From positions 5,851 to 69,850 of the forward strand of contig CAZCZJ010000001.1 in the NCBI GenBank assembly GCA_964503235.1: a stretch of 64,000 bases of DNA. Reading direction: 5' to 3'. Every line of letters starts with the position of its first letter. The first letter of the stretch is position 1. This DNA comes from an uncultured Dehalococcoidaceae bacterium (GTDB lineage Bacteria; Chloroflexota; Dehalococcoidia; Dehalococcoidales; RBG-16-60-22). Made by a program: the position numbers and the translations under genes. The notes beneath the pieces were generated by a model. That model saw nothing but the letters and a program-made list of their open reading frames with translations, searched no databases and was not told where the DNA came from. Positions 33,298-37,225 of this stretch are shown here, in pieces.

Positions 33298-33927
33298 CTA
33301 CTTCTTGGCCGTCGTCCCCTTAAGCTTCTTCTGCACTTCCTGATAGCCCATATCAAAAGCCTTCAGATTGGCATCGATAGCCTTGGCAGGAACACGGTTG
33401 CGCACCACTTCCTTGGCGATATCCACGGATATCGGCAGCAGTCCGGTCCCGAACAGCGCCCCCATCATAACAACATTGGTTGTCTGGATATTACCGGCTT
33501 CCTTGGCGATTTCACTGGCGTCCAGGGCAATTACTTTCTCCGAAACGCTATTGAGTTTTTCCAGTATGGCTTCAATCGTCGGATAACCGCTCTGCCCCAG
33601 AAAGACAGTGAACGGTAACACCTTGGTCGTATTGAGTATCACGATACTGGACCGGGAGAGGTACTGGATATTCCTTACCGCTTCCGAGGGCTCCACCGCC
33701 AGGAGGATATCGCATTTGCCTTCCATGGTCAGCGGCGAGTAGATATCGTCGCCCAACCGCAGATTGCTGAACACCGAGCCACCCCGCTGTGCCATGCCCA
33801 GCACCTCGGAGCCTTTGACGCCGATACCGCCCTTGACCGCTGCCGTTCCCAGCAACTCGGACATCAGCACCACACCCTGTCCCCCGACACCGCATATGAT
33901 TACTTCCAGCACTTTGTTATCAGCCAT
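33298..33927 (-). CDS. iorB: Indolepyruvate / 2-oxoacid:ferredoxin oxidoreductase, beta (gamma-domain) subunit
   Basis: 209 aa. VIICGVGGQGVVLMSELLG is the POR-gamma/IorB-type N-terminus. The start overlaps the iorA stop (AATGGCTGA). Confidence 0.8.
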   Translation of the reverse strand: MADNKVLEVIICGVGGQGVVLMSELLGTAAVKGGIGVKGSEVLGMAQRGGSVFSNLRLGDDIYSPLTMEGKCDILLAVEPSEAVRNIQYLSRSSIVILNTTKVLPFTVFLGQSGYPTIEAILEKLNSVSEKVIALDASEIAKEAGNIQTTNVVMMGALFGTGLLPISVDIAKEVVRNRVPAKAIDANLKAFDMGYQEVQKKLKGTTAKK

Positions 33928-36900
33928 TTTTCTCTCCTGCTATTATAGCATCGTGCGGGCATACTTGGGCACAGACCCCACAACCCGGACACTGGGTGCT
34001 ATCTATTATCACATCTTCACCCTCTATAATGATGGCGGGACAGCCAAGTAGATTTATACAGATTCGGCAATCGCAGGAAAGACAGCGTTCCGCTTCCTTG
34101 ATGGCATCTTCCCGGCTCAAGCCCAGCTCTACCTCATGGAAATTGCCCTGTCTTTGCTCAACCGGAATTATCGGCATATCAACCCTCGGTTGCTGGCCAA
34201 TCCCGAAAGTATCTACGGTAAGTTTGCTCTCGTAAACGCCTTCGCCCTCCCGACCAGTATCCAGAGGTTCGCCCTTTAGATACCTGTCGATGGATACGGC
34301 GGCTTTCTTACCGGCGGCCAGGGCTTCGATAACGGTAGCCGGTCCGCTGACAACATCACCGCCAGCAAAGATACCCTTAATACCGGTCTGCAACGTTACC
34401 GGGTCGGCTTTAATCAGTCCGTTCGATACCGCTTTCGAAGCTTCGCCGGACATCATTTGTAAATCGGGCTGCTCACCGATAGCCGAGATTATCAAAGGAG
34501 TATCTATTACGAATTCAGAGCCGGCTACGGGTTCCGGTCGTCTCCGACCGCTTTCGTCGGGCTCTCCCAGCTTATTCTTGATAAATTCCATACCGATAAC
34601 CTTACCCCCATCAGCAATAACGCGATTCGGTCCGGCCAACAGTTGCAGCTTTACTCCTTCTTTCTCCGCTTCGGCTATTTCCTCCTCGATGGCCGGCATT
34701 TCGGCACGGGAGCGCCGGTAAACGATATTCACATCTCTAAAGCCCAGGCGTACACAGGTACGGGCGCAGTCGACGGCTACGTTGCCGCCACCGACAATGA
34801 CCACTTTCTCCCCAGTGGGTACTTTATCTCCCATACTGACTTTGTGGAGTAAATCAGTGCCGTCAATAACACCCTCGGCATTCTCATTCTCAACCCCGAG
34901 ATTGCGGCTCTTATGTGCTCCGATAGCAATAAATACAGCGTCATAGTCTTTATGTAAAGTCGACAGTTCCACATCCCTGCCCAATCGCGTATTCAGTTTT
35001 ACTTCCACTCCCAGCTTGTCGATAATATCCATCTCATTATTCAAGATATCCCGGGGCAGCCGGAACTCGGGAATACCCACCGCCATCATGCCACCCAGCT
35101 TGGACAGCGCTTCAAAGATGGTTACGCTATAGCCCTCTTTCCTTAGGTTATAGGCAGCCATGATTCCCGCCGGCCCGCCGCCGATAATCGCCACCTTCTT
35201 GCCTTTTTCCGTGGCGATTGAATAGTCGTCCGCAACCTGGCCATAATCGACGGCGCTGCGTTTGAGGGCATTGATGGCAATAGCTTCCTCGATATCAGCC
35301 CGTATGCACTTCTGCTCGCAGGGACGCGTACAGACCCGCCCGATTATACCGGGGAACGGTAAAGCCTCTTTTATCAACGCCAGGGCTTCGTCAAATTTAC
35401 CTTCTTTTATCAAGCCCACATAGCCTTTAATATCGATATGCAGGGGGCAGGTAGCCTGGCAGGCGGGCGGGCTGCCGGCAACGCATTTCTCCTGGTCGAC
35501 CTCGTATGGCAGGGTTTTGACTCCCTGCCGACGTTTCTCGCGGGTATCCAGAATATTACAGAGTCGCCGTACGACAACCAGGGAAGGCCCTTCAAATCTG
35601 ATAGCTTTTTCCATAGTATCAATAAGCTCAGACAGGTCGAACGCGTCCACGACTTCGACGAATTTAACGCCGCTGGCTCTGGCGATATCCTCGATTTTTA
35701 CCGGAACACTATCGTCCGCAGGAGCACCGGGGTGGGGTTGAAATCCCGTCATGCCGGTGGTGCCGTTATCGAGGACCACCATGGTCACGTAGGCTTTATT
35801 GAACACCGAGTTAATCATCGGAGGGATGCCGGAGTGAAAGAACGTGGAATCACCCAGATGGGCTACCACCGGTACGTCGAGAACGTGCGGGAAGCCGCTG
35901 CCCAACCCAAAAGCTCCGCCCATACAGATAGCTATGTCATCGGAGTTCAGCGGCGGATTAGCCGCCAGAGCATAGCAGCCGATATCTCCGGTCTTCACCG
36001 GTGTTTTCCCGGTTTCTTGTTCATAACGCTGGCAGGCGATATTAATAGCGTAAAAAGACGACCGGTGCGGGCAACCGGCGCACATCGTCGGCGGGCGAAC
36101 GGGCAAAAGCGACTCCGTCTCAATCTTTATCTTATCTATCGCCGCAAAATCAACCGATGGTTTGACTCCGGTCAGGGTACTGAGAGCCTCGGCGACCTGG
36201 CGAGTAGAAAGCTCTCCCACCAGCGATAGCAGGTCTTTCCCGTGGATTTTCACGTCGATATCGTTGTCCTTGGTAATGACTTTAACTTCATCCTCAACGA
36301 AAGGCTCCAGCTCTTCCGCCACCAGGACGGTCGGTACCGATTTCAGCAACTGCTTGGTTAGCTCTGCGGGTAAAGGATAAGGCGTACCTATCTTCAACAC
36401 GGAAATCTTATCTTCCAGCCCCAACAATCTGATTGCTTCAATCGTATATCCATAGGAAATACCGTTGGCGATAACTCCCAGTTTTGCTCCGTCTTTAAGA
36501 GCAAGCCGGTTGAAAGGCAGCGAATCCACCGCTTTCCTTATCCTCGCCATCCTGTCTATCACCAGACGGCGGTTTTTTCTGAAATTGGCCGGTAAACATA
36601 CCAGCTTGACCGGGTCTTTAACGAACTTGCCCTCCCGAACATCACTGGATATCTCACCGAAGACAATATCGCTCCGGGCATGACCGATACGCGTTACCGA
36701 CCTCAACATGAACATCTGCCCGAACTCCTCGGATAGGCGGAAGGCATCCGCCATCATGTCCTTGGCTTCCTGTCCGGTGGCCGGTTCCAGAACCGGTATG
36801 TAACCCTGCCGGGCAATGTAACGGTTGTCCTGCTCGTTCTGCGAGCTCCACTGTCCGGGGTCGTCGGCGGACACCAGTACCAGTCCCCCGCGGGCGCCCA

Positions 36901-37225
36901 TGTAGCTGGCCGTCATCAGGGGGTCGTGGGCGACATTCACGCCGACGTGCTTCATGATAGCTAACGAACGCAGACCGCTCACGGAACCCGCGATAGCTAC
37001 TTCCAGGGCAACTTTCTCATTTACCGACCACTCGGCGTAAAAACCGATGTCTTTAGAGACATTGATCAGCGTTTCCGTGATTTCACTCGACGGCGTACCG
37101 GGGTATGCCGCCACGCATTGGACACCGGCTTCAATGGCACCCCTGGCGAATGCTTCGTTCCCGAGCATGAACAGCCTGGCACCGGGGGCATCGGAACTGA
37201 CCGTTAACTCAGCTACTTCGTTCAA
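33920..37225 (-). CDS. IorA-type 2-oxoacid:ferredoxin oxidoreductase alpha subunit with an inserted GltD/NfnB-like Fe-S + FAD/NAD(P)H module before the C-terminal 2x[4Fe-4S] domain
   Basis: 1101 aa. Residues 1 to ~590 form the IorA TPP module (AAYPGTPSSEI; GDIGCY...GDSTFFHSG). Residues ~590-1030 form the GltD-like module (CQATCP...RVCTRPCEQKC; KVAIIGGGPAGIMAAYNLRKEGYSVTIFEALSKLGGMM; VVIVGGGNVAVDCAR; GIFAGGDVV). The C-terminus is CLSCDCRIC...CPGCGVCAQVCP. Confidence 0.85.
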   Translation of the reverse strand: MNEVAELTVSSDAPGARLFMLGNEAFARGAIEAGVQCVAAYPGTPSSEITETLINVSKDIGFYAEWSVNEKVALEVAIAGSVSGLRSLAIMKHVGVNVAHDPLMTASYMGARGGLVLVSADDPGQWSSQNEQDNRYIARQGYIPVLEPATGQEAKDMMADAFRLSEEFGQMFMLRSVTRIGHARSDIVFGEISSDVREGKFVKDPVKLVCLPANFRKNRRLVIDRMARIRKAVDSLPFNRLALKDGAKLGVIANGISYGYTIEAIRLLGLEDKISVLKIGTPYPLPAELTKQLLKSVPTVLVAEELEPFVEDEVKVITKDNDIDVKIHGKDLLSLVGELSTRQVAEALSTLTGVKPSVDFAAIDKIKIETESLLPVRPPTMCAGCPHRSSFYAINIACQRYEQETGKTPVKTGDIGCYALAANPPLNSDDIAICMGGAFGLGSGFPHVLDVPVVAHLGDSTFFHSGIPPMINSVFNKAYVTMVVLDNGTTGMTGFQPHPGAPADDSVPVKIEDIARASGVKFVEVVDAFDLSELIDTMEKAIRFEGPSLVVVRRLCNILDTREKRRQGVKTLPYEVDQEKCVAGSPPACQATCPLHIDIKGYVGLIKEGKFDEALALIKEALPFPGIIGRVCTRPCEQKCIRADIEEAIAINALKRSAVDYGQVADDYSIATEKGKKVAIIGGGPAGIMAAYNLRKEGYSVTIFEALSKLGGMMAVGIPEFRLPRDILNNEMDIIDKLGVEVKLNTRLGRDVELSTLHKDYDAVFIAIGAHKSRNLGVENENAEGVIDGTDLLHKVSMGDKVPTGEKVVIVGGGNVAVDCARTCVRLGFRDVNIVYRRSRAEMPAIEEEIAEAEKEGVKLQLLAGPNRVIADGGKVIGMEFIKNKLGEPDESGRRRPEPVAGSEFVIDTPLIISAIGEQPDLQMMSGEASKAVSNGLIKADPVTLQTGIKGIFAGGDVVSGPATVIEALAAGKKAAVSIDRYLKGEPLDTGREGEGVYESKLTVDTFGIGQQPRVDMPIIPVEQRQGNFHEVELGLSREDAIKEAERCLSCDCRICINLLGCPAIIIEGEDVIIDSTQCPGCGVCAQVCPHDAIIAGEKNG

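Follow-up and report, generated by a model that had tools for sequence, protein, structure and literature searches.

A predicted NADPH-type flavoprotein cassette within the first ferredoxin motif of IorA from an uncultured Dehalococcoidaceae bacterium

Our analysis of a 64,000-nucleotide stretch of DNA from an uncultured Dehalococcoidaceae bacterium (positions 5,851 to 69,850 of contig CAZCZJ010000001.1, assembly GCA_964503235.1; the whole stretch is called the window here) shows a conserved and uncharacterised architecture of IorA, the alpha subunit of indolepyruvate ferredoxin oxidoreductase. The protein reads as a hybrid of canonical IorAB and the NADPH-input module of StnC and NfnA. By alignment, an iron-sulfur (Fe-S) flavoprotein cassette sits in the ferredoxin domain of IorA, between the first and the second cysteine of its first CxxCxxC motif, with Cys581 left upstream, and the same alignments mark it as a true insertion and not an end-to-end fusion. 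We regard it as rather probable that this IorA and its partner IorB form a two-subunit, indolepyruvate-type enzyme acting as an arylpyruvate:NADP+ oxidoreductase by way of the embedded cassette, possibly keeping a ferredoxin outlet. An original prediction made from the same DNA had placed the module between the thiamine pyrophosphate (TPP) domain and the ferredoxin domain; the insertion stands, but the clean interdomain position does not, as the site lies inside the first ferredoxin Cys motif.

Reading frame and insertion site

The fused iorA gene (33920..37225, minus strand) is one open frame of 1101 amino acids plus stop with zero internal stops, so that the single open reading frame (ORF) proposed originally is confirmed. 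It starts with TTG at 37225, a GGAGG Shine-Dalgarno sequence (37232..37236, minus strand) lies 6 nt upstream of this start, and the N-terminus fits the consensus of the homologues. The adjoining iorB (33298..33927, minus strand; 209 aa, POR gamma-type domain, AGGAG upstream) matches TIGR03334 with 220.7 bits against a cutoff of 205.8. It overlaps the 3' end of fused iorA, at the stop, by 8 nt (ATGGCTGA), exactly as first described, and is translationally coupled to it.

Domain annotation with Pfam found POR_N (residues 29-184), TPP_enzyme_C (414-552), Fer4_20 (577-662), Pyr_redox_2 (676-972) and Fer4 (1072-1094), and two NCBIfam models score above their curated cutoffs: IOR_alpha TIGR03336 with 716 bits (cutoff 650.9; residues 17-594 plus the tail) and PRK12771 "NAD(P)-binding protein" with 522.5 bits (cutoff 516; residues 578-1095). 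Pfam and NCBIfam thus agree with the predicted composition of an IorA, a GltD/NfnB-like Fe-S/FAD/NAD(P)H module and a ferredoxin tail; all motifs quoted with that prediction were located, and its module range (nt ~34140-35460) agrees with the insert as we map it. The IorA core (residues 1-581; 35483..37225, minus strand) comprises POR_N, TPP_enzyme_C and the first strand and first Cys of the ferredoxin domain (PYEVDQEKC581). It is followed by the cassette (residues 582-1050/1051; 34076..35482, minus strand), with two Cys clusters, FAD and NADPH Rossmann motifs and a permuted helix, and by the rest of the IorA-type 2x[4Fe-4S] ferredoxin domain (residues 1051-1101; 33923..34075, minus strand), which was delimited by alignment of the tail to unfused IorA.

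The core is that of a canonical IorA. Its TPP motif, GDSTFFHSG...LDNGTTGMTG, is the one found in canonical IorA sequences, and Cys382/385/417/434/556 are invariant and common to canonical IorA, with the ligands of the TPP-proximal [4Fe-4S] cluster assigned to Cys382/385/417 plus 434 or 556. The closest unfused relatives are canonical IorA genes of 640 and 650 aa followed by iorB in metagenome-assembled genomes (MAGs) of Dehalococcoidales and Dehalococcoidia (L011:5977-7899 and L012:5992-7944). With canonical IorAB (TIGR03336/TIGR03334; 56-59% identity to the core) the system shares the Pyr and TPP domains, the TPP-proximal Cys, the ferredoxin motif C-x2-C-x5-CPA ... CxGCGxCxxxCP and the adjacent iorB. 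It differs in the Fe-S flavoprotein cassette that breaks the first ferredoxin Cys motif, and in its probable acceptor, NADP+ instead of or besides ferredoxin. The IorA trait of a ferredoxin domain directly contiguous with the TPP domain is therefore missing: all eight of its eight Cys are present, but a 469-aa insert separates Cys581 from Cys1053.

We place the cassette within the first Cys motif because the excision alignment, the tail identities, the match pattern of unfused IorAs and a split operon agree. Removal of residues 582-1050 leaves a canonical IorA of 632 aa, which in global alignment with the unfused L011 IorA is identical at 383/644 positions with 16 gap columns. Across the junction the excised protein reads PYEVDQEKC|CD-CRICINLLGCPAIIIEGEDVIIDSTQCPGCGVCAQVCPHDAI and the L011 IorA reads PYSVDPEKCNDKCNACIELLGCPALIKEGTKTVVDITLCNGCGVCAQICPYKAI, and the ferredoxin domain is restored seamlessly. 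The 44-aa tail is identical to that of L011 at 26/42 positions and to those of other IorAs at 21-25/43-46, compared with ~19/43-47 for free-standing or split cassette proteins. Unfused IorA genes of many taxa, archaea and Firmicutes included, match residues ~12-582 and ~1050-1094 and skip the middle. In the split operon (contig L084), iorA' (4158-5990; POR_N+TPP, 610 aa) is followed by a middle gene (P0233; 6001-7641), which encodes the ferredoxin domain with embedded cassette as a separate 546-aa subunit, and by iorB (7638-8282); being flanked by iorA' and iorB, P0233 is best seen as this system in split form. Upstream of the operon stands an HpaB-family gene.

We also weighed an end-to-end fusion in which a PRK12771-type protein would itself have supplied the ferredoxin domain, and rejected it on the excision test, the tail identities and the split operon. 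In its favour, PRK12771 is collinear with residues 578-1095 and proteins of ~550 aa collinear with residues 575-1097 exist, so that the ferredoxin motif of the tail possibly came with the flavoprotein; moreover, the isolated tail scores 59.8 bits with PRK12771 against 49.8 bits with IOR_alpha, and P0233 is separately encoded. Against it, both the head and the tail flank fit unfused IorA better, and P0233 lies between iorA' and iorB. A misassembly, frameshift or missed stop, named at the outset as a way in which the single ORF could fail, is not borne out and was likewise rejected: the 1101-aa frame is intact, the protein recurs at full length in no fewer than 120 independent clusters of a search space of 5.8 billion proteins (clusters from JGI, ENA, NCBI and Logan) and in ~10 GTDB species genomes, and GC content is similar in the insert (0.531) and the IorA part (0.545). 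Chance is ruled out by E-values of 1e-156 to 1e-215 together with the conservation in those clusters.

Cassette anatomy and the distribution of the family

Both the best sequence matches and the best fold matches of the cassette are Bfu-type NfnL-like proteins, namely StnC of Sporomusa ovata StnABC (8oh5_C) and the NfnA subunits of NfnABC from Caldicellulosiruptor saccharolyticus (9bov_A) and Thermococcus sibiricus (9n5u_A), at E-values of 1e-139 to 1e-110 (8e-139 for 9bov_A). NfnB/NfnL (4ylf_B, 5jca_L), Xfn, GltD and DPD are next in rank. The alignment runs through the post-flavin linker to RCLxCxC, with 9bov_A 99-569 and 8oh5_C 101-570 corresponding to fused IorA ~584-1056. In 9bov_A, 9n5u_A and 8oh5_C the same cassette takes electrons from NADPH and delivers them by way of FAD to a chain of Fe-S clusters. 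Like StnC and Bfu-NfnA, the fused IorA has the permuted order, a Lys on the FAD-proximal cluster, the YRR motif and an embedding in a host Fe-S protein. Unlike them, its host is a TPP-dependent 2-oxoacid oxidoreductase and not NuoG/Fdh-like, no BfuB/BfuC (NuoF/NuoE-like) partners are found in the window, and electrons probably flow to NADP+ and not from NADPH.

In NfnB an N-terminal helix with R-C-L-x-C precedes C-x3-C-P by four residues. In the cassette, as in 9bov and 8oh5, the order is reversed: C589-x3-C593-P comes first, followed by C632-x3-C636-E-x2-C640, the FAD motif GGGPAG (~683-688), the NADPH motif GGGNVAVD (~812-819), GIFAGGDV and a linker, and the helix, ending in R-C1048-LS-C1051, stands behind the FAD and NADPH domains (NfnB residues 13-48 align with residues 1022-1057). 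The cassette is accordingly circularly permuted relative to NfnB, with both ends meeting at the distal cluster, and it is this meeting of the ends that would make it insertable. The tail carries the remaining pattern, C1053-RI-C1056-INLLG-C1062-P ... C1079-PG-C1082-GV-C1085-AQV-C1089-P. With NfnB/NfnL (36-39% identity) the cassette shares two [4Fe-4S] clusters (Fer4_20), FAD and the NADPH fold; it differs in having Lys for Glu, the helix and CxxC (1022-1051) behind the flavin domains, a covalent embedding and no adjacent NfnA/NfnS partner.

By alignment, the ligands of the FAD-proximal cluster are C593/C632/C636/K655, equivalent to C108/C147/C151/K170 of Csac NfnA. K655 also aligns with K170 of StnC, whereas 4ylf_B and 5jca_L have Glu (GRLER/GKLER), and it is invariant, together with all relevant Cys, in an alignment of 28 sequences. 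Glu637 of the "CE" motif was dropped as a non-Cys ligand, since the StnC/NfnA alignment puts the ligand at K655. The C-terminal half contains 15 invariant Cys (581, 589, 593, 632, 636, 640, 1048, 1051, 1053, 1056, 1062, 1079, 1082, 1085 and 1089), which with K655 give 16 predicted ligands, enough for four [4Fe-4S] clusters besides the TPP-proximal one. Y836-R837-R838 is invariant and common to NADPH-binding homologues; the two Arg of this motif bind the 2'-phosphate in this fold, and the motif points to NADPH. A further invariant Cys pair, VDC820ARTC824 (nt ~34754-34768, minus strand), lies in the NADPH-domain helix throughout the close Dehalococcoidia clade; neither P0124 nor the solved homologues have it.

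The at least 120 full-length homologue clusters (~1095-1105 aa, 58-100% identity) bear no annotation other than "indolepyruvate ferredoxin oxidoreductase subunit alpha", and every named one comes from a Dehalococcoidia, Dehalococcoidales or Chloroflexota MAG. A full-length match of ~3.3 kb was found in ~10 Dehalococcoidia species and one Thermodesulfobacteriota MAG among the GTDB species genomes. Among the best 150 representatives at 50% identity, 33 have the same order of IorA core, cassette and IorA-type tail at 35-57% identity (one of them from a Deltaproteobacteria MAG, another from a Dehalococcoidia MAG). Their residue at the ligand position is Lys in 26, Glu in five, His in one and Thr in one; the fused IorA and its 58-100% identity clade have Lys655 throughout. 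In six fused representatives (P0139, P0142, P0146, P0151, P0154 and P0165) YRR is replaced by x-L-E, which suggests NADH specificity for this sub-lineage. The architecture is thus common in metagenomes, one half of a caveat raised originally; for the other half, the searched literature, with most subscription journals outside its reach, yielded neither a description of an IOR-GltD/NfnB/Bfu fusion nor a biochemical characterisation of this architecture.

The junctions vary. P0121, P0139, P0142 and P0146 have the split motif of the window protein, and P0123 and P0124 retain two head Cys. In the commonest type, R-C-xx-C runs straight into an intact C-xx-C-xx-C-x5-CP IorA motif and the head linker of ~60 aa contains Cys; P0130, P0145 and P0149 have an additional ordinary 2x[4Fe-4S] ferredoxin. 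In quick neighbour-joining trees, which carry no support values and are confounded by fragments and split genes, fused forms fall into 14 (cassette) and 19 (IorA core) all-fused clades, and the window protein with fragment P0122 is sister to the unfused L011/L012, with fused P0121 outside. This interleaving of fused and unfused forms hints at repeated gain, loss or recombination.

IorB also partners divergent fused lineages as well as the split three-gene form. One divergent IorA (P0130; 42% identity, extra 2x[4Fe-4S] ferredoxin) lies directly downstream of NuoE-like, NuoF-like and Fer2_4/Fer4/GCV_H (NuoG-N-like) genes: on its contig (L083) the genes at 2254-2775, 2787-4640 and 4654-5976 are followed by fused iorA (6001-9507) and iorB (9589-10173). 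This locus resembles a HydBC/Bfu-type bifurcating module and is a possible undescribed "Ior-Bfu" complex. P0119, a fused IorA of 59% identity, has no adjacent iorB and stands directly behind a Psr/Phs-like molybdopterin oxidoreductase operon (Fer4_11, NrfD, Molybdopterin). In the Deltaproteobacteria MAG of P0126, a 1128-aa sulfite/nitrite-reductase-like protein with its own Fer4_20/Pyr_redox_2 cassette is encoded near fused iorAB (L082, 11278-14664, minus strand), which puts two different cassette-bearing enzymes at most 2 kb apart. The same cassette also occurs in HdrD-like, HdrA/MvhD-like, DHODH-like, OYE, Fer4_5 and sulfite-reductase-like hosts. The Bfu literature consulted names Rnf, formate dehydrogenase, FeFe-hydrogenase and molybdopterin oxidoreductases as hosts and mentions no 2-oxoacid oxidoreductase.

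Electron path and alternative readings

Of the two functions originally envisaged, a wiring of 2-oxoacid oxidation to NAD(P)+ is the best-supported one, with NADPH indicated by YRR, and a con- or bifurcating node is disfavoured by Lys655. Direct wiring is favoured because the insertion lies inside the ferredoxin motif and because permutation and Lys ligand are of the non-bifurcating StnC/Bfu-NfnA type. In the proposed path, arylpyruvate would be oxidatively decarboxylated at TPP to arylacetyl-CoA and CO2, and the two electrons would leave TPP singly, passing from the TPP-proximal cluster to the IorA ferredoxin-domain cluster(s) and on to the distal cluster of the cassette (C589, C640 and two of C581/C1048/C1051). 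From there they would reach the Lys655-ligated proximal cluster (C593, C632, C636) and then FAD, which would gather two electrons and reduce NADP+ to NADPH. Since the junction peptides 581-593 and 1048-1062 carry ligands for both, the host cluster and the distal cluster of the cassette must be neighbours, an adjacency that would hard-wire the cassette into the electron path of the enzyme. The remaining ferredoxin-domain cluster may still feed external ferredoxin as a second outlet.

Published potentials are ~ -500 mV for 2-oxoacid/acyl-CoA and -320 to -380 mV for NADPH; with these values, NADP+ reduction would release about 23-35 kJ/mol and would in practice not run backwards. A simple arylpyruvate:NADP+ oxidoreductase is favoured because of these potentials, the StnC-type Lys state and the lack of a NuoE/F-like or NfnA-like partner nearby. 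A tblastn search of the window with the NuoE-, NuoF- and NuoG-N-like proteins of L083 found no such Bfu partner; no NfnA/NfnS-like gene adjoins iorAB, with the limit that no NfnA query was run on the window and that the genome is incomplete. Arylacetyl-CoA could yield ATP via an ADP-forming acyl-CoA synthetase encoded in the window (9783-11990, minus strand; CoA_binding_2, Succ_CoA_lig, ATP-grasp_5), an enzyme that is the usual ATP-conserving partner of 2-oxoacid:ferredoxin oxidoreductases (OFORs). This gene fits a catabolic, ATP-yielding route, as does the context of the fused homologue P0142, which adjoins an amino-acid permease and acyl-CoA synthetases.

Several points weigh against this interpretation. 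The assignment of C581, C1048 and C1051 to the two junction clusters is ambiguous, and the AlphaFold2 model of fused IorA (pLDDT 71, pTM 0.47) is of moderate quality and worst at the cluster sites. Arylpyruvate as the probable substrate is taken from family membership only. Electrons of -500 mV that are passed to NADP+ lose energy which anaerobes relying on ferredoxin would normally save. Lastly, the family may not be functionally uniform, as some relatives have Glu or adjoin a Bfu-like module.

Clearly less probable, yet the strongest of the competing scenarios, is a dual-acceptor hub in which ferredoxin would stay the main acceptor at the surface cluster of the ferredoxin domain and the cassette would be a side branch for ferredoxin:NADP+ balancing without bifurcation. 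The IorA ferredoxin domain keeps its eight Cys, all invariant, so that both host clusters would persist; the cassette is joined at one cluster motif and the other (C1079-C1089) is intact; and in Stn and NfnABC cassettes of the StnC type work as reversible adaptors between NADPH and Fe-S clusters. A ferredoxin docking surface, however, may not survive a 469-aa insertion, and the hub overlaps largely with the NADP+ oxidoreductase that we favour, the main difference being the dominant outlet.

We consider it improbable that the embedded FAD bifurcates or confurcates electrons as in NfnB/NfnL, coupling NADPH, ferredoxin and 2-oxoacid, for example for reductive carboxylation or for tuning of ferredoxin and NADPH. 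The homology of the cassette to NfnB/NfnL (4ylf_B 1e-94; 5jca_L 8e-85) and the equivalence of Arg722 with NfnB R201 and StnC R239 would allow it, and among the relatives there are the five Glu-bearing fused representatives, with the NfnL-like state, and the divergent P0130 downstream of Bfu genes. The Lys655 of the whole 58-100% clade, in contrast, is the state of StnC and Bfu-NfnA, whose FAD was judged non-bifurcating from structure and mutagenesis and, in StnC, whose Lys ligand was shown to be essential. An NfnA/NfnS-like high-potential branch is not adjacent and a NuoEF-like gene is not in the window. In the oxidative direction bifurcation is also unneeded, because both TPP electrons are already low-potential. 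A similarly small chance is given to a more general three-terminal device between 2-oxoacid/acyl-CoA, ferredoxin and NADP(H), bifurcating or confurcating at a flavin or a cluster, either here or in sister lineages, for which the Glu-ligated cassettes and the P0130-type "Ior-Bfu" would be the candidates.

Smaller still is the likelihood of a biosynthetic role, in which NADPH would drive an arylpyruvate synthase carboxylating arylacetyl-CoA for aromatic amino acids. OFORs are reversible in principle, StnC-type cassettes normally feed NADPH electrons into Fe-S chains, and Por-Bfu of Dehalococcoides has been suggested to work reductively (PMC9304861). But NADPH at -320 to -380 mV alone cannot drive a couple of ~ -500 mV, with no bifurcating partner in the window, and the neighbourhood looks catabolic (ADP-forming acyl-CoA synthetase, CoA-transferases and an aldehyde:ferredoxin oxidoreductase, besides the setting of P0142). 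An artefact (chimeric assembly, missed frameshift or stop) or a truncated IorA joined end to end with a free-standing PRK12771-type protein has a practically negligible chance on the evidence given above for the frame, the independent clusters, the GC content and the flanks.

Genomic surroundings and meaning

Two tandem paralogous PF12831 FAD-dependent oxidoreductases (30027-31448 and 31537-32943, plus strand) are convergent with iorAB and have no curated family match above cutoff; the pair is syntenic, standing beside fused iorAB also in a relative of 75% identity (L001). At 26208-26741 (plus strand) a polyferredoxin is encoded that best matches the Fe-S portion at the N-terminus of PadI; its gene runs into the start of the next one (26738-28567, plus strand), a member of the aldehyde:ferredoxin oxidoreductase family, and this pair would fit the handling of arylacetaldehyde or aldehyde alongside the indolepyruvate oxidoreductase. 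CoA-transferase A/B genes (7602-9006) and thiolase/ChsH2-like genes (4884-7481) lie near the acyl-CoA synthetase. A FAD_binding_4 / CCG-Fer4_8 / FAD_binding_4 trio (12369-16839, minus strand) is GlcDEF- or LdhH-like, and a lone second HdrD/TfrB-like CCG protein is encoded at 24478-25746 (minus strand). A 515-aa ORF (21643-23190, plus strand) resembles, by its translation only, a haem catalase, which would be unexpected amid otherwise strictly anaerobe-type genes. An alpha-glucan/trehalose block (43477-62828) contains, by Pfam, amylase-family, GlgB-like, GlgE and phosphorylase genes and a TreS-maltokinase fusion (1119 aa), and, by translation only, a MalQ-like ORF, a TreZ-like ORF and a large ORF (47437-49863).

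OFORs are textbook ferredoxin-dependent enzymes, and those linked to pyridine nucleotides are rare, comprising the pyruvate:NADP+ oxidoreductase of Euglena, phenylglyoxylate:NAD+ oxidoreductase and the predicted Por-Bfu. The Euglena/Cryptosporidium enzyme, a pyruvate:ferredoxin oxidoreductase joined to a cytochrome-P450-reductase-type flavoprotein, shares the concept with the fused IorA; it differs in its FMN/FAD module, its C-terminal attachment, its eukaryotic occurrence and its specificity for pyruvate. Phenylglyoxylate:NAD+ oxidoreductase, PadEFGHI of Azoarcus/Aromatoleum, is a bacterial OFOR-type enzyme of aromatic metabolism in which an extra FAD component reduces the pyridine nucleotide; it differs in having five subunits with a separate flavoprotein subunit, in its NAD+ specificity and in its substrate. 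The NCBIfam Pad models NF045762, NF045763 and NF045766 are among the profile matches. Por-Bfu, predicted only, in Dehalococcoides mccartyi and other Chloroflexi, likewise links an OFOR to pyridine nucleotides in the same phylum; unlike the fused IorA it is a four-subunit POR with separate BfuABC genes, proposed to be bifurcating, without an NfnL-like cassette and not IOR-type (Schut et al. 2022, PMC9304861).

The whole family described here, at least 33 clusters at 50% identity, carries only the label of an indolepyruvate ferredoxin oxidoreductase alpha subunit although uncultured Dehalococcoidia and Deltaproteobacteria/Thermodesulfobacteriota-like MAGs contain it in abundance. Its split, NADH-type (x-L-E), Glu-type and Bfu-adjacent variants form a ready comparative series, and the permuted cassette inside a host cluster motif shows how a redox module can enter the wire of another enzyme, a rule that nature offers for the design of Fe-S enzymes coupled to NADPH. 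Should a three-terminal device after all be realised, energy coupling would be built into a TPP enzyme itself, and subsurface Dehalococcoidia could perhaps make arylpyruvate reversibly at the limit set by thermodynamics. If, as we favour, NADPH is made directly, metabolic reconstructions for these bacteria, which are widespread in sediments and the subsurface, would name the wrong acceptor for the electrons of aromatic amino-acid fermentation and misjudge its energy yield.

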